From contig CAYTED010000001.1 of NCBI GenBank assembly GCA_964436855.1, forward strand, positions 21-64,020: 64,000 bases of DNA. Reading direction: 5' to 3'. The notes under the pieces are model-generated. The model did no database searches. It had not been told where the DNA came from and worked only from the letters and a program-made list of their open reading frames with translations. Source of the DNA: an uncultured Bdellovibrionales bacterium. Lineage in GTDB: Bacteria > Patescibacteriota > Minisyncoccia > Moranbacterales > UBA1568. Below, piece by piece: positions 3,747-63,674 of the stretch (positions are counted from its first letter, which is position 1; every line of letters starts with the position of its first letter). A program made the translations under genes and the position numbers.

Positions 3747-4418
3747 CTATACGGTTGCATTGTCAGTGCACGATCTTCGAGAAAAAAACTGTGCGACAAA
3801 AACTCTCGCTCTCTCTCCTAAAGTCGGAGTAAATTCGTGGCGCATATGAGGAAGGGACACTTCGAGCATCTTTTTCAGGTACACGATCGCAACTTCAAGA
3901 TACAGCCCTGACATAGCATGGGTTTCGATAATATTCGTATTCTTTCCTTGCGAAAGATCTCCATGTCGAAATTTCTCGAGTATGCCTTCCAGCACATCGA
4001 TAATCTGATCGTAGCGCATCTCGAAAATATCCCAACCAAAAGAAAGTGGATGACCAAGTCGATCGATCATCACTACTCCAAATGGCAATCGAGACTCACC
4101 TTTTTCATCAAAAAGGGAAAGCCTTTCCGCAGCTTGAAATGATCGACAGAGATAGAAATGAGCTGACTCAGAATACCTCACAAGGCGCGGCCGATGCTTC
4201 TTGAAATCATCAACGATGTCCTTCTCAAGACAAGCGATCATGCCTAAAAGAATATTCAGAAACCCATCTCGGTTCATCAGGGCGATTCTCCGGCCAAGCT
4301 CTCGATTGGAGAAAAAGTACAACGCACCCGGAACCTTGACCGGATGGAAGCGCAGACGATCCTGTTGTAAAGAAACCATGCGACATTCTCCTTTTACAAA
4401 TTGAGGAAATGACGACAA
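3747..4418 (-). CDS. Hypothetical protein.
   Basis: A 223-aa ORF with ordinary coding composition. I recognise no family. The true start may be an internal Met (MVSLQQ…). Confidence 0.35.
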   Translation of the reverse strand: MSSFPQFVKGECRMVSLQQDRLRFHPVKVPGALYFFSNRELGRRIALMNRDGFLNILLGMIACLEKDIVDDFKKHRPRLVRYSESAHFYLCRSFQAAERLSLFDEKGESRLPFGVVMIDRLGHPLSFGWDIFEMRYDQIIDVLEGILEKFRHGDLSQGKNTNIIETHAMSGLYLEVAIVYLKKMLEVSLPHMRHEFTPTLGERARVFVAQFFSRRSCTDNATV

Positions 4419-25747: not shown

Positions 25748-25785
25748 CTCCCCCCCCCCTCTAAGGGGAGGATTAAGGAGGGGTC
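25748..25785. repeat. Solo copy of the G/C-rich palindromic repeat family (B1-type): ctccccccccccTCTAAGGGGAGGATTAAGGAGGGGtc.
   Basis: It shares AAGGGGAGGAT-N-AGGAGGGGT with the copies at 38170-38216 and 39567-39603. Confidence 0.6.
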
Positions 25786-26658
25786 TTGTTTTTCTTCCTC
25801 GTCCGTAAGTGGAGCTTTGATACAGATGCGAGATGAAGTGAAGCGTTGCTGACAATGTCTGTAAGCAGGAAGTGAAACGGCAAACGGACATTGAGCGAAA
25901 CAAATCCGCATCTTTCAAAGCGAAACGCAGGACAAGAGTTTACTTTGCATACTTTCTTTTGCGATCAAAAGAAAGTATAAGAAAAAATAACCATAATAAA
26001 AAACGCTTACGGTCTCCAGTAACACTGGGGGAATTCCGTAAGCGTTGTGTTGTGCGCAAACAGGCATGGCGTGGCTGCGTCCTCGTCGATGAGCGCGACG
26101 CCGATAGCCTGGCGCGGGATTTCTCCCGTGCCCGCTGCGCGGTTGCGATTATACCACAAAAAGAGAAAAATGTGGTCGGCGAGAAGAAGTGAGTACTACG
26201 AGCATCGCAGGAAGCATCCCTCCTTATGCGCTCTCTCACCCCTCGTTCGCCGATTGAAACGTGTCGTGATAACGTACCACCCCTACCACGACCGTAGGTA
26301 TCCGACGCTCCCTATCTTACACGGGAGGCCGGACGGTTAAGAGGTTCATGGACGCGCCGGAGCCGCTGTGGCCGCCGCCGATGCCGACGCCCCTTGGTTT
26401 TCTCCTTGAGATCGCCACCACGTCGGTAGCTTCTTTACCCCGAAATATTCCGGACAAAAAAGCTACCCGCGTGGCGCACCAAAAAAGAGTGCTTCGCTTC
26501 AAACTTCACAATCGCAATCATTCAAAGAACATTAAGGATATTCTTAACAGAATTCCCCTCATCCGTCAAATTTTGGAACTTCAGTATAAATTTATATTAT
26601 AACAAATAAATCAAATATTGTCAATACCAATCACACAATGTCTATTTTTATGGCTTAT

Positions 26659-36964: not shown

Positions 36965-37447
36965 TCACTCGAGGCCGAGGAAGATGCGCATCATCTCGGG
37001 CGAAAGCGTGCCTTTGCTTTTTTCTGCAAGCTCAAGAAGCGCACTGAGTTGCCCTTCGTTCAGAGGACGTTGAGCGGTCTCTTCGCTCAAAAAAAACTCA
37101 ATGACCGGTCGATACCTACGATCAAGCAGCAAGGGCGCCAGCGAATGATAATCGCTCTGCGCGCCAAGCAGGAATTTTCTTAAACTGGCCACTTGATTGG
37201 GATGTGGAATATTCTTCCCACCCGTCCAGCGATCAATCGTTGCCCGACTTGCAATATCTGAACGAACAACATCCATCTTGGTTTTTCCAGCAGCCTCAAT
37301 AACTGCCGACAGCAACCGACCCATCTCTTTTTTCTGCGCAGGGTCAGTACGAGCTAAATCCACCGCTCGCTTAAACTGCTCAAACGCTTCTTTCGCGTCC
37401 ATTGCTATCTCCTCATAAAAGCTGTTATTGGGAAAAAACCGTCGCAT
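36965..37447 (-). CDS. Hypothetical protein, possibly with an HTH. Its start codon lies inside the right copy of the 35-bp inverted repeat.
   Basis: A 160-aa ORF with no family recognised. The ATG at 37447 is the second ATG of the repeat. Confidence 0.3.
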   Translation of the reverse strand: MRRFFPNNSFYEEIAMDAKEAFEQFKRAVDLARTDPAQKKEMGRLLSAVIEAAGKTKMDVVRSDIASRATIDRWTGGKNIPHPNQVASLRKFLLGAQSDYHSLAPLLLDRRYRPVIEFFLSEETAQRPLNEGQLSALLELAEKSKGTLSPEMMRIFLGLE

Positions 37448-37479
37448 TCATTCCGTTCTGAATTAGGACACTCTGTGTC
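37445..37479. repeat. Right copy of the perfect 35-bp inverted repeat (partner at 1-35).
   Basis: Verified as an exact reverse complement of 1-35. Confidence 0.85.
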
Positions 37480-37512: not shown

Positions 37513-38898
37513 CTATTCCGTCAATGGCTTTCGAGAAACAAGGGCTAAAAGGAGAAAGAAAAACAGAAGCCCGAAATGCGAAGTCCACAGCCAATGATCA
37601 AGAAGAAGACTCGGGATGATCGCAATAAGAATTGCGGATTGATGATTTTTGATTTTTCCCTCCAATAGGGCGGGCAGGGATTTTAGAATAGGAAGTAGAG
37701 CAGACACAAGAAATCCTATAAGCAACATGAGTCCAACAATCCCCAGCTCCGACCAAACAAGAAGAAAGACATTGTGTGTCGGTTGAATACTCCATACCGG
37801 ACGATCCGGTTCCTGCTTAATGATCTCTGCCGTGAAATTCCCCGCACCAACTCCAATCAAAGAATGTTCACCAATCAACGTTCGTGCATCCTGAAGCGAT
37901 ACAACGCGCTCTGAGACCGACCCTTCACGTTCGATTGTCGCTCTGTCAAAACGAGGAAAGATCTGTTCATGAAGTATAATACCGAACACGGCGACTGCTA
38001 CGCTCAATGTTCCAAATATCTGGTATAAGGTAAATGATTTTTGATCTTTGATTTTTGATTTTTGATAGACGATCATTCCGATTCCCATCACCACTCCGAA
38101 CCATGCCACCCGTGAAAATGTCAGAATGAGACCAAGGAGGATAATTATTGTACCCACTAAAAAAAGTACACCTCCTCCCCTTTCCAAGGGGAGGATCGAG
38201 GAGGGGTTGTGATCCTCTTTCAAAACCTCCCCCTGCCCCCTCCCTAGAAAGGAGGGGTGGAGAGAGAGAAACCCCATGACCAACACCAAAATCATTCCAA
38301 GAAACCCTCCCAAAATATTCGGATGCGGAAAGGTCCCATACGCACGCAACCATCGCTCATGATCAATTTTCAGAACAGATGTTCCTGCCTGTGACACCTC
38401 ATGCATACTCATGCCAAGAAGCGAAGAGCTGATGGATTGTTGCGAGACAAATTGCATGATGCCAATCCCGCTCTGTATCACGCCAGCAGCAAGTAAAACA
38501 AACACGACTTTCTTCATATCAATCTCCATCCCTCGCACCACAAAAAACAATCCCCCAGCAAAGAGTAATTTCACAAAAAAATACAAAGCGAGCATCTGAT
38601 CCCCTGCCCAGAAAATTGATGCCCCAGTCCATACTATGAAAAGCAATAACATCAATGTTGTCATTCCGACCGAGTCTCCGAGTGGAGGAATCTTGATTCC
38701 AGATTCTTGATTCCAGATTCTTTCTTTTATTGTACGAAATAATACTAAGGCAAATATCAGCAATAAAAGTATATCGGTACCATATAAAGCGACAACTCCA
38801 TACTCCCACTTCACTCCCCCAATGAAAGGCTCACGTAAAAAATACACCGTCTGAATCGGAAGGAGAAAGAGAAAAAAAAGAAAGAATTTATCCAACAT
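37513..38898 (-). CDS. O-antigen ligase/polymerase (Wzy_C) family membrane protein carrying an in-frame roughly 98-bp palindromic-repeat insertion.
   Basis: It has at least 10 TM helices. The Wzy_C motif …IGVGAGNF…PTHNVFLLVWSELGIVG is present. The ORF stays intact through the repeat (…LGRGQGEVLKEDHNPSSILPLERGGGVLF…). Confidence 0.65.
   Translation of the reverse strand: MLDKFFLFFLFLLPIQTVYFLREPFIGGVKWEYGVVALYGTDILLLLIFALVLFRTIKERIWNQESGIKIPPLGDSVGMTTLMLLLFIVWTGASIFWAGDQMLALYFFVKLLFAGGLFFVVRGMEIDMKKVVFVLLAAGVIQSGIGIMQFVSQQSISSSLLGMSMHEVSQAGTSVLKIDHERWLRAYGTFPHPNILGGFLGMILVLVMGFLSLHPSFLGRGQGEVLKEDHNPSSILPLERGGGVLFLVGTIIILLGLILTFSRVAWFGVVMGIGMIVYQKSKIKDQKSFTLYQIFGTLSVAVAVFGIILHEQIFPRFDRATIEREGSVSERVVSLQDARTLIGEHSLIGVGAGNFTAEIIKQEPDRPVWSIQPTHNVFLLVWSELGIVGLMLLIGFLVSALLPILKSLPALLEGKIKNHQSAILIAIIPSLLLDHWLWTSHFGLLFFFLLLALVSRKPLTE
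38037..38064. repeat. Heptanucleotide tandem repeat (GATTTTT x4, one variant) inside the ligase coding sequence.
   Basis: The sequence is tgattttt-gatcttt-gattttt-gattttt. Confidence 0.6.
38168..38265. mobile_element. ORF-less derivative of the palindromic element, with B1 and B2 halves adjacent, inserted in-frame in the ligase gene.
   Basis: B1 is cctcccctt-tcc-aaggggagg, a 9-bp stem, followed by gatcgaggagggg. B2 is acctccccctgccccctccctagaaaggaggggtggag. The two halves match the termini that flank the DUF559 gene. Confidence 0.65.
38690..38722. repeat. 14-bp tandem repeat (agattcttgattcc, about 2.5 copies) inside the ligase coding sequence.
   Basis: The sequence is ggaatcttgattcc-agattcttgattcc-agattc. 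Confidence 0.55.
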
Positions 38899-38970
38899 AA
38901 AACACCCGAATTATACCCAAAAAAGGCATTAAATGCTATCATTTCGCTATACGAATTTTGATTTATCGCC

Positions 38971-39567
38971 ATGCAATTCATCACCTTTTCGGGAGTCGAC
39001 GGAAGCGGAAAATCCACCCAACTCGAACTCCTGCAAAACAAACTCGAACAAGAAGGAAAGAAAGTCGCCTATTTTCACGCGATTGAGTTTTCGCTTGCAA
39101 ATAAACTCTCAAGAAATAAAAAGGTTGGAGATCAAGGAACTGGAAAATCAGTAACATCTGCATCTTTCCCTAGTATTTTATTGCGAAAAATCTTTCTCAT
39201 CATCGACCTCATCCGATTCCGGTTCTATTTCGCCAAACTACAAAAAGAGAATTACGATTATCTCCTTTCTGATCGATATTTCTTCGACACCGTCATCAAC
39301 ATTGAGTACCTACAAAAAAAGAATCTTTCTTTCATATTCAATATTCTTTATTCAATATTCTTTATTCATCCTCAAAAAGCTTTCTCCTTCGACGCCAATA
39401 CCGAAGCCATCATGTCCCGCGACCGAACACCCGAGCAAGGTATCGAATACCTCCGCGCGAAACAAGAACTCTTCAAACAGAAAATCAAGAATTGGAATAT
39501 GATCGAAATCAATGCGAACAGAGACAAAGAAAGTATTTTTCAAGAAATAAAAAATCTCGCAAGCTAG
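38971..39567 (+). CDS. tmk: Thymidylate kinase-like P-loop nucleotide kinase (divergent).
   Basis: The N-terminal FITFSGVDGSGKSTQ is the classic dTMP kinase P-loop. A DRY-like LSDRYFFDT motif is present. The gene contains an internal 14-bp tandem duplication at 39321-39365. Confidence 0.55.
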   Translation: MQFITFSGVDGSGKSTQLELLQNKLEQEGKKVAYFHAIEFSLANKLSRNKKVGDQGTGKSVTSASFPSILLRKIFLIIDLIRFRFYFAKLQKENYDYLLSDRYFFDTVINIEYLQKKNLSFIFNILYSIFFIHPQKAFSFDANTEAIMSRDRTPEQGIEYLRAKQELFKQKIKNWNMIEINANRDKESIFQEIKNLAS

Positions 39568-40004
39568 CCCCCCTCCCCTTTCCAAGGGGAGGGCAGGGAG
39601 AGGTATAAAAATGTATACCTTCAACCACATATCAACAATAGGCGCACGAAAAAATCTGCGAAAAAAATCAACACCTCAGGAAATAATTCTCTGGTCAAGA
39701 CTCAGAAAAAAAGCTCTTGGGTATAGATTTCGCAGACAACATGCCATGGGATCATATATTGTCGACTTCTGCTGCACAGAGAAGAAAATCATCATAGAAA
39801 TCGATGTATGGCAACACAAAGAAAATACCTCTTACGACTCAGATCGAACCACATACGTTCAAAACTTCGGCTACACAGTACTGCGCTTCTGGAATAATGA
39901 TATCAATGATAATCTGATAGGGGTCATCATGAAGATTGAAGAACATCTGAAGTAAACCGATACCTCCCCCTGCCCCCTCCTTGGCAAGGAGGGGTGAAGA
40001 TACC
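39567..40004 (+). mobile_element. Putative small mobile element: a B1-type palindromic terminus, a DUF559 endonuclease ORF, then a B2-type terminus.
   Basis: Terminus C (39567-39603) and terminus D (39962-40004) correspond to the two halves of the 38168-38265 repeat. The ORF fills the gap exactly. GGAGAGG in the C terminus serves as its ribosome-binding site. Confidence 0.55.
39611..39955 (+). CDS. DUF559 endonuclease-domain protein (Vsr/PD-(D/E)XK-like).
   Basis: The 114-aa product …ARKNLRKKSTPQEIILWSRLR…YRFRRQHAMGSYIVDFCC…IIIEIDVWQH… matches the DUF559 pattern. Confidence 0.7.
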   Translation: MYTFNHISTIGARKNLRKKSTPQEIILWSRLRKKALGYRFRRQHAMGSYIVDFCCTEKKIIIEIDVWQHKENTSYDSDRTTYVQNFGYTVLRFWNNDINDNLIGVIMKIEEHLK

Positions 40005-40016
40005 ACCACAACACCT

Positions 40017-41495
40017 ATGAAAAAATTCTCCTCGGCACTCATCTGGCTCACGATGTCGGAAATCATCTTCAATATCGCCGGATACATCATCCATTCCTCG
40101 GTCGGTCGCATCCTTGGTCCGGCGGATTACGGTCGATTTAGTATTATTGTAACGCTTACGACGATGGTCATTATCCTCATCGGGAATGGCATCCCGACCG
40201 CCATGTCCAAATACCTCGCTGAAATATTCGAAAGCGCACCTGAAAAAATTACAGGCATCAAACACAAAGCCATGCGTCTTCAGGCCATGCTCATGCTCGG
40301 AGTGACAGCTCTTTTCTTTTTCTCATCTCCACTTCTTGCCTGGGCACTTCACGATGCCACGCTCACCCCTCTCTTTCAGCTCTCAAGCCTCATCATCCCG
40401 TCCTTCGCCGTTGCATCGTTTTACTTCTACTACTACACCGGCCTTCATTTCTTTCGCCTTCAAGCCTTCCTCAAGACCATGCGCGCCCTTGGTCGCATCA
40501 TCTTCATCATTTCCTTTGCATACTTCTTCGGCGTACAAGGAGCAGTCTCCGGGTACATCGCCGCGCCACTGTTTGTTTTCGCTATCGCTCTCCTGTGCGA
40601 CACCTTCATCACGCACAAATATTTCCCGGCAACCAAGCAAGCAAAAAATCAAACCGTCGATTTTTCAGGGAAAACTCTCCTCGCCTATGCCTGGCCGCTT
40701 ACTCTCTTTCTTCTTTTTTATGAATTCATCCTCACACTCGATCTCTATTTCGTAAAAAGTCTCCTCCAAAGCGATTATCTGACCGGCATCTACAATGCCG
40801 CCATTACAGTTGGTCGTATCCCCTACTATCTCTTTTATGCACTCACTATCATACTCCTCCCCGCAATCTCCAAGACAACTGCCGAGCGAAACACCGAAGA
40901 AACCGAAAGCCTCGTAAACAAATCTCTCCGCCTCATGACCCTTCTTCTTTTTCCGATTATTACGCTCATGATCGCCTATTCCACACAAATCCTCAATCTT
41001 TTTTATGGCGCAAAATATCTCGATGCCGCAGCGCCGATGAACATCTTCACCATCGGCGTCGGATTTCTTACCGTTTTTTATGTCCTCTCTTTTGCCCTCA
41101 ATGGCGCGAATCTCGTAAAGATACCGATGAAACTTTCCTTTTTCGGTTTTCTTGGCATGATCATCCTCAATTTCCTTCTCATTCCGAAATACGAGCTCAT
41201 TGGCGCCGCCCTTTCAACAACGATTACCTCTCTTGTCCTTATGATTGCAATCCTCATTGCAACCGAGAAACACTTCAGCGTAAAGCTTCCCATCAAAACC
41301 ATCGTCCTCTCACTTATAAGCGCAGTTATTATTACAGCTCTTGCAAAATTCCTTCCCTATGGAATGATATCGTTCATTGTTTCCGGGACAGCGCTCTTCA
41401 TCCTTTACTTCATCCTCCTGAAGCTTTTCGGCGAACTAAAGCCATCCGACTGGGCTCCGTTTTCCAAACTCTTCAGAAAAAAATCCACCTCTTAG
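40017..41495 (+). CDS. Polysaccharide/oligosaccharide flippase (MOP superfamily, Wzx-like).
   Basis: The product is about 490 aa with 12-14 TM helices and typical Polysacc_synt architecture. I set the start after the D repeat. Confidence 0.7.
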   Translation: MKKFSSALIWLTMSEIIFNIAGYIIHSSVGRILGPADYGRFSIIVTLTTMVIILIGNGIPTAMSKYLAEIFESAPEKITGIKHKAMRLQAMLMLGVTALFFFSSPLLAWALHDATLTPLFQLSSLIIPSFAVASFYFYYYTGLHFFRLQAFLKTMRALGRIIFIISFAYFFGVQGAVSGYIAAPLFVFAIALLCDTFITHKYFPATKQAKNQTVDFSGKTLLAYAWPLTLFLLFYEFILTLDLYFVKSLLQSDYLTGIYNAAITVGRIPYYLFYALTIILLPAISKTTAERNTEETESLVNKSLRLMTLLLFPIITLMIAYSTQILNLFYGAKYLDAAAPMNIFTIGVGFLTVFYVLSFALNGANLVKIPMKLSFFGFLGMIILNFLLIPKYELIGAALSTTITSLVLMIAILIATEKHFSVKLPIKTIVLSLISAVIITALAKFLPYGMISFIVSGTALFILYFILLKLFGELKPSDWAPFSKLFRKKSTS

Positions 41496-41676
41496 AGCCT
41501 GTTGGAAAAGTCTCTTTCGTCGCGAAATTCCAGTTTTTTGAGCGAAAAAGATGAAGAGCGAGGAAGGCTATCAAGTCGATAACCTGACGAGCTGTGAATC
41601 TTTTGCAGCCAAAAAACTGGAATTGCAGCAGAATACGGACTTTTTCAACAGGCTCTTAGAACCTCTTGACTATTTC
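41494..41676. repeat. Roughly 180-bp imperfect palindrome with nested arms (agagcctgttggaaaagtc…gactttttcaacaggctct; aaattccagtttttt…aaaaaactggaatt).
   Basis: The arms are reverse complementary with few mismatches. It starts at the flippase stop codon. Confidence 0.55.
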
Positions 41677-52451: not shown

Positions 52452-55400
52452 TTAATAATACACCTTCACGTTCCCCTTCTCCGTCGTAAGTCCCGGAATA
52501 ATCATTCCGGAAATCTTCTTCCGAACGGGACGACGATCCGTGTTATCATCACCCTCATCGGATAAATCTCTCGGTTTCTCCATTATGACAGTTTGATGTT
52601 TCTTTGGAAGGTAGTGCGATTCAAGCTTCACTGTATCGGTTCGGATATGCGAGGCAAAGAGCGCATATTCGTTTGTGTCTTGCCGGAGACGGAGTATCCA
52701 TTTGTAATCGAGGGTTGTTTTCGGAAGATTCGCCGAAACACCATCGTACGCGATCGATTTGAACTCGATCGAAATCCGACCGAAACGATCTCTTTCCTTT
52801 TCAAAAGAAAGTTCGGTTCGATGACCAGCTGCATCGGTAAGAGTAACGGTCTTTATTTCTTTTTGCTTCTCCTTGTCATTCCGAGCAAGTCTTCGAGTTG
52901 AGGAATCTCTAAATTGAGGTCCCTCGACTTCGCTCGGGATGACAGAATCCATCATCACTACTGAAACAGATTGACTGAAAGCATCCATTCCGACGATATC
53001 AAGTTTCTGTACTTCGGGATTGAAAGAAATTTTTGCTTCAGGGGCGGTCTTGTCAATCTTGATTGTTTGGATCTTCACTTCTTCCTTGTTTCCCATTTGG
53101 TCGGTCGAGAAATACTGAATAGTCGCAATCCCTTCTTGAGAAAGAACAAACGGATCGGTATATATCCTCCATGTCGTACCACTATCAAATGAGTATTCTG
53201 TCTTTTGAATACCGGTTCCATTTTCATTGTCAGCTGCGGAAAGCGCGATCGAAACATCACTCGTATACCAACCATTTGCGCCTTCCGTTCCGGAGAGAGA
53301 AAGCGTTGTGACTGGAGGAATAGTATCAGTCTCCCCTCCTCCGGTAACCGTATCGCCTTCAATCGCAATCGCTTGTTCTTCTTCTGCCAAGAGAGTGGCC
53401 GTTCCTCGGAGAGTCGCCGTCGATTCTTTCGCTTCGCCCATATCCGGATCTTCGGTAATCTTCGTCGCTTCAATACGATAGTTACCCTCTCCCGTTCCTT
53501 GGGTCAAGATCTTGTATTCGCCATCTTCCGGATTCGGAATGGTGATGAATTCGTTTTTAGTCTGATAACCGGTATAGAAAGCGCCTTCAATTTCGTTGAT
53601 GATGTCTCCTGTTTTGAAGTTCTTTCCGATCCGTTTTCCGGAAGGGGAAACGACTTGAATGTCAATGGGAGAGAAAACCTTAATCAAGAAAATGTTCGGC
53701 ACATTTACTTCTATGATTTCTTTGCATTCTGATCGACCTGACAATTCGTGGAACACGAGACATCGCGCCCTACTCGGCAGCTCGGTATGTTCAGCATCGA
53801 GAATTTCTTCCTTATCTGAAGGAAGAGCTTCAGCACTTGAGAGAGGGACGGTGCCATCTCCGGAAGAAAAAGAGAATCCATTTTCAGGATTATCGGAATA
53901 AAAATCAAGAGGCATTCCATTCTCCCACTTACCCAACTTAGAAGTATGGATGAGCTTTATTTTTTCAATTGATTTTTGAATCGACTGTTTGCCAATAACA
54001 CTCAAACTTCTTACGCCGTTAAGCGCATTAACATTCATTGTTAAATTTTCCAAAAACTCATTCCTCGAATAATTCTCCGGGTACGATCGCATTGTTTCAC
54101 TTCCAAGATCAAACAAATAATCATAATCCGGAAGCAGTTGTTTTACCGAAAACACAGCTCCACGAATATATTCATACAGACTCGAGTATCCCGAGTGTTC
54201 CGCTTCAATCGTAAAGTGATGCTTGAGGACACTGTCGAGCAAATCTGTCCCAAACTCTCCTCCCTCCCACATTAAGTAAGCTTTTGGCGCACCCCGATGC
54301 GGCGTACCGAGCGTTACGAGCTGATCAACATCACTCTGATACGCATCGCCTTCGATATATTCCCTTGCTACCAACCCGCCCATCGAATGTGCGGCAATAT
54401 CGACCTTTTCCGATCCGGTTTCATTTTTGATGTCCGTGATTTTTTGTTTCAAATCATTCGCCGTATCGCGATTGTCCCGTTTCCAATCGTAAGGAAAGAG
54501 AAAGAGGTTCCTCCCTTCTTCATAGCCGTTTTTCTTGAGTGATGCGACAAGATCGTCGTAAATATGAAGAATCGGATCAAGCACCCATTCTCCGTTGTCA
54601 TTCTTTTCCGAGCCAAGAATCCCGGGAACGATGATGAGCGGATCGGCCAAGAGATCATTTTGTCGGAAACCGGAGTATGCGACCGTTCCCGAGACTTTTT
54701 TCCCTTCACCAAAATGACCATAGTCATTCGATACATCTCCCCGCGGACCGGTGATATCGCCGTAATAATTATTGCGAAGCGAGACGATCGGTTCGCAAAC
54801 TGCTCCTTCCGGACAGCTTCCATCTCCAATCGAAACCGCTTCGTTCGCCTGACGGTAGAAATCCTCGGTATTTCCGATCGGGATATTGTTGTCGCTTCGC
54901 TTGTACGGAATATAGTACGAAAAATTCGAGTTAATGATAGAAAGAGTATCCGCTCCCTCACCCCACCGGTATGGGTATTCCGCGCGAATGTCGGAAGAGA
55001 GACTCCCCTGGAAAAGGGAATTCTCAATCCGAAGCCGCCCTTCGAAAAAATGAAGGGTCGGGAGTCCGGGAGTCGTTCCGAAATCACCTCCGGCTTCTTC
55101 ATTCTCTTTCCCGCCGTCAAGGAAGTGAACGTGTCGGAAAAGAGATGGGTCATTTTCGACGCTCCCTTGGAAAAAAACTTGGTAGTGCGCGGTTTCGTCT
55201 TTCGGAGCGAACACAATCGGATTCGTTTCCGTTCCGTTTGCAAGTACCCGCCCACCCTGAATCTGGAAGAGTCCGTATCCGCCAAAAGAATCGGAAAGGG
55301 TGATATGGACGCCTTCTTCGATCGTAAGTGTCGCACCGGATACGATCACTGGCTTGTCGAAAGAAAGTTCCGAGTCTTTGATCCAGACAGTATCCTCGAC

Positions 55401-63586: not shown

Positions 63587-63674
63587 CACTCTTAGTGTCA
63601 TCCTGAGCGAGTCTGCGAGTCGAAGGATCTCAGTTTGGTCATTGGATTTTGATTATTGGTTATTGATTTATCGT

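Follow-up and report, generated by a model that had tools for sequence, protein, structure and literature searches.

A DUF559 gene nested between inverted BoxC/PIT triplex-motif repeats: a candidate enzyme for a widespread class of bacterial repeats

Introduction

In a 64,000-nucleotide stretch of DNA from an uncultured Bdellovibrionales bacterium of the Patescibacteriota (contig CAYTED010000001.1 of assembly GCA_964436855.1, positions 21 to 64,020 of the forward strand; the whole stretch is called the window below), a gene for a DUF559 protein is enclosed by two inverted copies of a short G/C-rich hairpin repeat. The nuclease-fold family DUF559 is found very widely and is highly conserved; it has a solved structure and a member in Escherichia coli. 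The cassette formed by the gene and its repeats can be compared with several described systems. RAYT is an HUH/Y1 (IS200/IS605-like) transposase that acts on single-stranded repetitive extragenic palindromic (REP) hairpins with a GTAG motif. Rickettsia palindromic elements (RPEs) are short palindromic repeats that are inserted in frame in protein-coding genes and are translated; we know of no nuclease gene associated with them. Nucleases with the Vsr fold form an accepted family of homing endonucleases, EDxHD (PMC3384342; PMC3424549).

The repeats that enclose the gene can be placed in a class that has been named three times: BoxC in E. coli in 1992 (Bergler), PIT elements in 2000 (Hoyne and Maher) and triplex motifs (TM/TMECO) in 2015 (Holder et al., PMC4666352). 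E. coli MG1655 contains 23 TM copies at 18 loci, five of which hold two inverted units, and cyanobacteria, Neisseria and others abound in related motifs (PMC4666352). A stable triplex is adopted in vitro by the TMECO single strand, RNA does not support purine-motif triplexes, and TM loci in E. coli show an excess of local rearrangement (PMC4666352). Neither promoter nor terminator activity was seen for PIT/BoxC elements in E. coli (cited in PMC4666352), and according to the 2015 survey a mobility function had never been found near BoxC/PIT/TM repeats (PMC4666352). The repeats were described as early as 1992, are present in hundreds of genomes and are tied to local instability, and no origin, spreading mechanism or associated protein is known for them. 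In the literature searched, which left out subscription-only papers, DUF559, COG2852, PF04480, ycjD and Vsr-like proteins are never linked with BoxC, PIT, triplex motifs, miniature inverted-repeat transposable elements (MITEs) or REP-type repeats. We present the DUF559 gene as the first candidate enzyme for the BoxC/triplex repeat.

Results

The cassette between tmk and the flippase gene

With its TM ends, the cassette forms a discrete unit that recurs in many bacteria and in a variety of genomic contexts and is sometimes duplicated and inserted. In the window it lies on the plus strand in an insert of 449 bp (39568-40016) that reaches from the stop codon of tmk (thymidylate kinase, Pfam Thymidylate_kin; 38971-39567, stop codon 39565-39567) to the ATG at 40017 of a Polysacc_synt/MurJ-type flippase gene. 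The extent of the insert is based on relatives in which tmk and the flippase gene overlap by ATGA. It consists of a G/C-rich unit (39568-39603), 7 nt, an open reading frame (ORF) of 345 bp (39611-39955, plus strand, 114 amino acids), 6 nt, a second G/C-rich unit (39963-39994) and 22 nt. The original prediction had described such ends, here refined to these coordinates, and had correctly placed the ORF 7 nt after a GGAGAGG and 6 nt before the right end. It also held that the element fills the intergenic region exactly; this is true on the left, where the tmk stop codon is touched, and untrue on the right, where 22 nt (39995-40016) separate the hairpin from the flippase start.

The left unit, on the plus strand, is built from a pyrimidine arm (39571-39580), a loop (39581-39583) and a purine arm (39584-39593), followed by a linker (39594-39595) and a G-rich third strand, GGGAGAGG (39596-39603), that mirrors the purine arm. 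Its hairpin (39571-39593) reads CCCTCCCCTT/TCC/AAGGGGAGGG, with a folding energy of -12.6 kcal/mol and a z score of -2.7. The right unit is inverted relative to the left and is read on the minus strand: the complement of its third strand, CCTCCCCC (39963-39970), and a linker (39971-39972) precede the hairpin (39974-39994). The stems in the window are CCCTCCCCTT/AAGGGGAGGG and CCCCTCCTT/AAGGAGGGG. Both third strands are oriented towards the ORF, with six of seven triads compatible on the left and seven of seven, on the minus strand, on the right.

The left third strand (GGAGAGG) is at Shine-Dalgarno distance, 7 nt 5' of the DUF559 ATG, and this inner G-rich strand in the window probably doubles as the ribosome-binding site. 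No promoters or terminators were found within 38900-40200, nor a separate promoter inside the cassette, and the hairpins have no T-tract. Rfam gave no match at gathering score across the window. A known RNA family was considered for the repeat and dropped, a permissive scan giving only sub-threshold miRNA-like hairpin matches on the ORF-less repeat pair described below.

The ends belong to the BoxC/PIT/TM class

The ends share one anatomy: a pyrimidine 5' arm, a loop, a purine 3' arm, a linker of 2-5 nt and a G-rich strand mirroring the purine arm (for example, purine arm AAGGGGAGG and then third strand GGAGGGGTT). This three-block layout is that of the G/C-rich class II intrastrand triplex motifs (PMC4666352). 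Because the third strand is always on the ORF-facing side, one end is the inverted repeat of the other. There are four perfect homopyrimidine/homopurine hairpins in the 64 kb window, two in the cassette and two in an ORF-less pair (38171-38259), and all four have an inward-facing third strand within 7 nt with six or seven of seven triads compatible. ViennaRNA folding covers the hairpins only, and the triplex in the window is predicted from the triad rule. In related loci a triad-compatible third strand accompanies 119 hairpin-strand instances, compared with five in random control regions, and mirror symmetry exceeds direct repetition by 112 to 47.

The cassette ends are thus members of the known BoxC/PIT/TM intrastrand-triplex repeat class (PMC4666352) and not novel termini. 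The TMECO consensus, CCCTCNCCC-N3-6-GGGNGAGGG-N3-GGGNGAGGG, has no match in the window stems (CCTCCCCTT / AAGGGGAGG), which places them in a different subfamily of the same class; the consensus is present in some related loci and in E. coli. Inverted pairs occur in the window (38171-38259) and at loci L012, L043, L044, L057 and L071 (L numbers designate the loci compared in this study), and the window also has a single unit (25748-25790).

The DUF559 protein

The product of the ORF is a Vsr-like PD-(D/E)XK domain. As the original prediction proposed, it is a DUF559 protein: a hidden Markov model search matches Pfam PF04480 with an E value of 5.1e-35 (120.1 bits against a cut-off of 20.6) over profile positions 8-108 of 109. 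The residues that are invariant in 42 relatives (D52, E63, D65, Q68, H69 and R92-F-W) are all present, among them the acidic and histidine positions conserved in active sites of the Vsr type, while the near-invariant G66 is replaced by V. The closest solved structure is that of an "endonuclease-like protein" from N. gonorrhoeae (PDB entry 3hrl, E 4.8e-32), with an alignment that spans the conserved D52-H69 block, and there is a weak match to the homing endonuclease I-Bth0305I (PDB entry 3r3p, E 0.0046). The NCBIfam model of E. coli YcjD, PRK09767, is matched with an E value of 2.3e-26 and Vsr is matched weakly. DUF559 is the sole ORF of the cassette, in which no other Pfam, NCBIfam or PADLOC family and no DDE, HUH, serine or tyrosine recombinase was found. 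PADLOC gave no defence-system match and PHROGs gave only weak matches.

Flanks of related DUF559 genes

A scan of species-representative genomes yielded 80 loci with relatives of the ORF, of which 79 were usable; nearly all are from Patescibacteria, mostly Moranbacteria, and the source genome of the window is represented by 64 kb. In 52 of the 79 loci the 90 nt upstream of the gene match the reverse-complemented 90 nt downstream better than all 20 random pairs from the same locus. Perfect homopyrimidine/homopurine hairpins are found within 110 nt upstream in 56/79 loci and downstream in 39/79, compared with about 0.5% of random 110-nt windows. Their third strands face the gene rather than away from it by 33:11 on the left and 24:2 on the right, and the median distance of the hairpin is 32 nt to the start codon and 26.5 nt from the stop codon. 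The 123 flanking hairpins represent 40 distinct stem sequences, all complementary, so that the stem sequence varies while complementarity and strand asymmetry stay. The DUF559 ORFs are AT-richer than their surroundings (median GC 0.33 versus 0.41); the corresponding values for the window are 0.38 for the ORF and 0.46 for the window as a whole. TMs without an ORF match the cassette ends of the same genome, up to 100% over 45 nt.

An inside-out layout is seen in four Nomurabacteria loci (L049, L071, L078 and L040; about 3920-4380). There the C-rich strand of the upstream unit points outward from the gene, as does the G-rich strand of the downstream hairpin, whose loop contains the stop codon.

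Loci picked by the hairpin

Metagenome stretches with an exact copy of the window's 21-mer hairpin number more than 120, which is a lower bound, and they vary greatly in base composition. The repeat-side sample consists of 80 metagenome loci among the matches listed, picked by the hairpin alone and holding 88 hairpin occurrences. When ORFs within 400 nt of the hairpin are considered, DUF559 is the only family that recurs in at least four of the 80 loci listed. The third strand faces the gene in all seven of the hairpins adjoining a DUF559 ORF whose orientation was checked, and each of the nine DUF559 ORFs of these loci carries a TM-derived peptide at an end. Together with the E. coli locus described below, the pairing of DUF559 with TMs holds in Patescibacteria, diverse environmental bacteria and E. 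coli.

In the 80 loci listed the 21-mer is mostly solitary with a one-sided third strand; inverted pairs with a central stem are also present, as is one tandem array. This array (L141:3452-3624) has a period of 76 bp, each unit being the 21-mer hairpin plus GTTAGGGTGGGGT, and indicates that TM units also occur as minisatellite-like arrays. A clean insertion boundary was sought by comparing a filled locus (L116) with ORF-less ones (L092, L084, L101 and L145). The inner stem (ttgccgtcct...aggatggcaaa) is common to them and the apical ~33 nt differ, so insertion and replacement are indistinguishable in this comparison.

Insertion, duplication and long residence

The cassette is inserted between tmk and the flippase gene, and paralogues lie in other contexts of other genomes. 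The gene order wzy-tmk-DUF559-flippase is common to the window, L001, L017 and L024. Comparison of orthologous junctions, which the original prediction had suggested, reveals relatives without the insert: an ATGA overlap joins tmk to the flippase gene in L204 (flippase 84% identical) and L206 (78%), and in L210 the two genes are 20 nt apart. The overlapping state is most simply the ancestral one, which makes the 449 bp of the window an insertion and the junction a hotspot. Other inserts at the same junction are a DUF6886-like gene (L203), an ORF of 75 amino acids (L205) and a long-hairpin element of ~195 bp (L207-L209). The last of these (L207:2291-2487, the same in L208, and L209:2300-2490) is MITE-like with AT-rich inverted ends and lies in opposite orientations in L207 and L209. 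It belongs to no Rfam family and gave only sub-threshold miRNA-like matches.

Genome UBA12141 contains three DUF559 paralogues in unrelated contexts. Two of them (L018 and L032) have ORFs that are 92% identical and unrelated flanks, and the outer edge of the left TM marks precisely where they become homologous. The cassette of L032 is rearranged (3900-4000): a complete left unit and a right unit are both upstream, none is downstream, and the DUF559 ORF (132 amino acids) extends through the right unit.

When the window is compared with L001, saturation of synonymous sites (proportion of synonymous differences, pS, 0.78) contrasts with TMs that are 91-95% identical. The cassette ends are thus conserved far beyond neutral expectation, which means that constraint acts on them or that conversion homogenizes them. 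L017 and L024 have lost their TMs and also have substitutions at E63, Q68 and H69, residues that are otherwise invariant, a joint decay of repeats and protein.

TM units without the gene in the window

The ORF-less inverted pair is 89 bp in length (38171-38259, no strand assigned). Its left unit is a hairpin (38173-38195) with the third strand GGAGGGGTT (38200-38208) and its right unit is a third-strand segment (38224-38233) with a hairpin (38237-38257). As the original prediction had noticed, the cassette ends match the halves of this repeat. An exact 21-mer, CCTCCCCTTTCCAAGGGGAGG, and an exact 19-mer, ACCTCCCCCTGCCCCCTCC, are each common to the cassette and the pair, with a chance expectation of ~0 (100 shuffles), and the right halves share 90% identity across 39 nt. 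An artefact of low-complexity G/C runs was rejected because exact matches of 19 and 21 nt have an expectation of 0 and because the structured, oriented pattern recurs in other genomes. The central spacer, given earlier as about 8 nt, is ~16 nt (16-18; 38207/38209-38224). The pair folds as three hairpins on either strand (-22.8 and -25 kcal/mol; ViennaRNA), the middle stem being built from the two inner strands, and in the full cassette the DUF559 ORF occupies the position of the apical loop of this middle stem.

The fused repeat does not lie in an intergenic region. A Wzy_C/O-antigen-ligase-like ORF (37513-38898, minus strand) runs through it in frame, and the resulting peptide, ...LHPSFLGRGQGEVLKEDHNPSSILPLERGGGV..., belongs to a loop that differs between orthologues. 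TM repeats can therefore ride in frame inside an essential-type membrane protein gene of a reduced Patescibacteria genome. A degenerate solitary unit is intergenic (25748-25790, plus strand). Its purine arm (GGGGAGG) and third strand GGAGGGGT are intact and its pyrimidine arm has decayed to a run of C. The termini accordingly have further copies in the window, in this unit and the ORF-less pair, as well as at loci elsewhere.

The wzy gene also carries other repeats. A second short family (TTGTCATTCCGA...CGAG...GAGGAATCT) is present in the window at 38658-38693 (inside wzy), 52873-52908 and 63595-63630, with at least one of these copies in frame in a coding gene, and a related copy lies at a different position of the orthologous wzy (L001:1925-1980). 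Tandem duplications of the gatttttgat type and the cttgattccagattc type occupy 38036-38066 and 38690-38720 of the window, and the wzy of L001 has similar, non-identical tandem runs at the corresponding place.

Further repeats in the window lie outside the cassette. An imperfect palindrome of 171 nt (41490-41660) begins at the flippase stop codon and has arms of 83 nt, 72% complementary and separated by 5 nt; it is not alignable with the hairpin element of L207 and L209. A 14-nt unit, attctttattcaat, is tandemly duplicated inside tmk (39331-39374). A perfect inverted repeat of 35 nt, GACACAGAGTGTCCTAATTCAGAACGGAATGAATG and its reverse complement, is found at 1-35 and 37445-37479, so that one arm starts the window and the other follows 37.4 kb later, directly upstream of wzy. 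An invertible segment, an assembly edge or a chance placement of the window start could account for it; composition is uniform and the synteny with L001 is unbroken across it. A chimeric window was rejected on the grounds of uniform composition and of the rtcB-wzy-tmk synteny, which carries on in L001.

The E. coli locus ycjD

ycjD is the only DUF559 gene of E. coli K-12. It ends inside a degenerate TM (…CCCTCTCCCTGA…) that overlaps the stop codon, and 168 bp past this stop codon lies CCCTCGCCCCTCTGGGGAGAGGGTTAGGGTGAGGGG, which is TMECO no. 9 of Holder Table 1 (1,351,239-1,351,204). The last ~40 nt of ycjD (ggagacggtgctggagaatattc...ctgaaccg) recur ~60 nt past the stop codon (L081:3300-3420), between the degenerate TM and TMECO no. 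9, and this repeat has the appearance of a leftover second DUF559 3' end. The first report of BoxC is a paper on envM. We take envM to be fabI, the gene that adjoins ycjD.

Of 5426 complete E. coli genomes, 3378 carry ycjD and 38% lack it. Where it is absent, the sapF-fabI interval is occupied by the eef efflux operon. E. coli thus failed as a test of filled against empty sites, the allele without ycjD being a replacement by the eef operon and not an excision.

Discussion

The reading that we favour, and to which we would give about an even chance, is that DUF559 is the cognate nuclease of the TM repeats and spreads in a homing-like manner. According to this proposal the DUF559 protein would recognize or cut TM DNA, probably when the repeat is extruded or single-stranded, and the break would be repaired by copying from another TM-bearing copy. 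Such repair would spread or homogenize TM units and would occasionally transfer the gene as well, to the central loop of a pair of TMs. The route would be homing-like and dependent on recombination rather than cut-and-paste transposition. It would lead to a relation like that of REPIN/RAYT, in which one or a few long-lived, vertically inherited enzyme genes are nested in the repeat of the genome and are accompanied by many ORF-less repeats. A wider version, which we put forward tentatively and hold to be somewhat doubtful, is that DUF559 including YcjD is the missing enzyme of the BoxC/PIT/TM repeats in a bacteria-wide partnership of the REPIN/RAYT type. The Vsr-fold nuclease would recognize G/C-rich DNA able to form triplexes or hairpins and would drive its spread, homogenization and local instability while the gene rides in the central loop.

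Several observations weigh against a nuclease that spreads with its repeats. The loci were picked through DUF559 or through one hairpin and are not an unbiased genome census, and in the hairpin-picked sample a DUF559 ORF adjoins only 8 of the 88 occurrences listed, TM units far outnumbering the gene. The proteins flanked by the 21-mer are only 36-45% identical to the window protein; with one hairpin accompanying such divergent proteins, the hairpin sequence is not tied to a single subfamily and there is no sign of co-evolving specificity. E. coli genomes without ycjD appear to keep TM-like copies, as judged from places per sequence record, with several additional matches to the TM portion of the query, which suggests that TMs can persist without the gene. 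No target-site duplication was seen: neither the window cassette nor any of the three UBA12141 paralogues is bordered by direct repeats. The cassette occupies the same site across many species pairs (L028/L034, L013/L015, L049/L071/L040 and L005/L008), and its ORFs are under strong purifying selection, with ratios of nonsynonymous to synonymous substitution (dN/dS) of 0.05-0.26. Even the TM-less gene of L017 and L024 has a dN/dS of 0.06, a value that would agree with a host function separate from mobility. The literature searched contains neither nuclease activity nor TM binding for any DUF559 protein, YcjD included.

The original prediction saw in the locus an autonomous element and its MITE-like deletion derivative. 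As a mechanism this amounts to a cut-and-paste transposon in which DUF559 serves as transposase on terminal inverted repeats and the 89-bp pair is a MITE-like internal deletion, and we consider it improbable. Part of that picture stands, namely a recurrent cassette with terminal inverted repeats, two-ended ORF-less copies with the same ends in the same genome, an empty site in relatives, homology between paralogues that starts at the repeat edge, and sub-terminal similarity of filled and ORF-less copies in L012 and in L116 versus L092. The rest is not supported. A Vsr-fold hydrolase of 114 amino acids has no known strand-transfer or other transposase-type chemistry, no target duplication is seen, and the cassettes are long-term vertical residents. 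Most copies are solitary or in tandem arrays, which two-ended transposition cannot produce (among the matches listed, 8/88 are next to DUF559), and the centres of ORF-less pairs are not simple deletions of the ORF. The description of the ORF-less repeat as a deletion derivative is not supported. The dominance of solitary units, the missing target duplication and strand-transfer chemistry and the longevity of the cassettes together make a transposon with its MITE the less likely account.

That DUF559 is an ordinary host nuclease for repair or structure processing, with TM pairs as fragile, recombination-prone sites whose mobility is independent of the protein, is unlikely in our judgement, though less so than the transposon. 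The sites would trap or exchange small genes, or linkage to a TM would be useful to a nuclease that resolves TM-stalled forks. TM loci are rearrangement hotspots in E. coli (PMC4666352), the tmk/flippase junction holds several alternative inserts in relatives, the gene persists vertically under strong purifying selection even in L017 and L024, and TMs appear to be kept in genomes that lack ycjD. A passive trap should nevertheless catch many families, and DUF559 is the only recurrent neighbour; the geometry is fixed, with the gene centred between inward third strands at the median distances given above; and paralogues move with their TMs. A purely passive association is hard to reconcile with this fixed geometry and sole recurrent neighbour, and what keeps it in play is that TMs outnumber the genes and appear to persist without them. 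A regulatory role seems least probable, and would surprise us. Here the flanking repeats would act in cis as insulators or as a translational switch that holds a potentially toxic nuclease at a low level, the inner G-rich strand serving as Shine-Dalgarno sequence and pairing with the downstream C-rich strand, and the ORF-less copies would be unrelated. The position of GGAGAGG 7 nt before the ATG, the complementarity of the inner strands of both ends, the central stem of the ORF-less copy and the lack of a separate promoter in the cassette agree with such a switch. The hairpins, however, have no T-tract of a terminator, PIT/BoxC elements are inactive as promoters and terminators in E. coli (cited in PMC4666352), and the ORF-less pairs, solitary units, in-frame wzy copy and paralogues that share their ends are left unexplained.

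A specific physical link between DUF559 and TMs, as in the homing-like proposal, would give each of them a testable role and would constitute a second repeat-enzyme partnership of the REP/RAYT type with unrelated chemistry. It is directly testable in E. coli K-12, which has ycjD and 23 catalogued TMs.

The ends resemble BoxC/PIT/TMECO in their three-block layout, in being G/C-rich in an AT-richer genome, in occurring as solitary units and close inverted pairs and in being conserved and widespread. They differ from TMECO, reported to be always intergenic (PMC4666352), in that one window copy is inside a coding ORF, and from the repeats of Holder et al., for which no mobility gene was reported (PMC4666352), in that the window pair holds a nested DUF559 gene. 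YcjD and 3hrl belong to the DUF559 family like the window protein, and ycjD is also TM-ended with a TMECO nearby. Unlike the window cassette, ycjD has no TM but a different hairpin on its upstream side, and the alternative allele of its locus is the eef efflux operon and not an empty site as at the tmk/flippase junction. The in-frame ORF-less pair in wzy is reminiscent of the RPEs, to which the sequence family is unrelated.

With the EDxHD enzymes such as I-Bth0305I (3r3p) the cassette protein shares a Vsr-type fold and the character of a free-standing or nested selfish gene with presence or absence at a fixed site (PMC3384342). A homing-type distribution is seen here as well, with the gene present in the window, L001, L017 and L024 and absent in L204 and L206, where tmk and the flippase gene overlap. 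EDxHD enzymes are encoded within group I introns or inteins and carry an additional DNA-binding domain, whereas the window protein is a bare domain of 114 amino acids, far closer to YcjD and 3hrl, and is nested in a repeat and not in an intron. The earlier statement that DUF559 proteins are not described in a mobile element thus holds for the TM-flanked cassette only, homing endonucleases of the related Vsr fold being established (PMC3384342).

Of the analogies drawn at the outset, to insertion sequences with their MITEs or to homing endonucleases with palindromic elements, the former fits less well, since persistence at the same site under purifying selection resembles REPIN/RAYT more than an insertion sequence and its MITE. 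As in REPIN/RAYT, an enzyme gene lies between inverted copies of the short palindromic repeat of its genome, many ORF-less singlets and doublets accompany it, the gene has long been kept vertically at one locus, and the repeats are alike within a genome. Unlike RAYT, an enzyme of the HUH/Y1 type, the cassette protein is a Vsr-fold hydrolytic nuclease and the repeat is of a homopurine/homopyrimidine triplex type. REPIN/RAYT would thus be the closest functional analogy, realized here with a hydrolytic Vsr-fold nuclease and triplex-type repeats.

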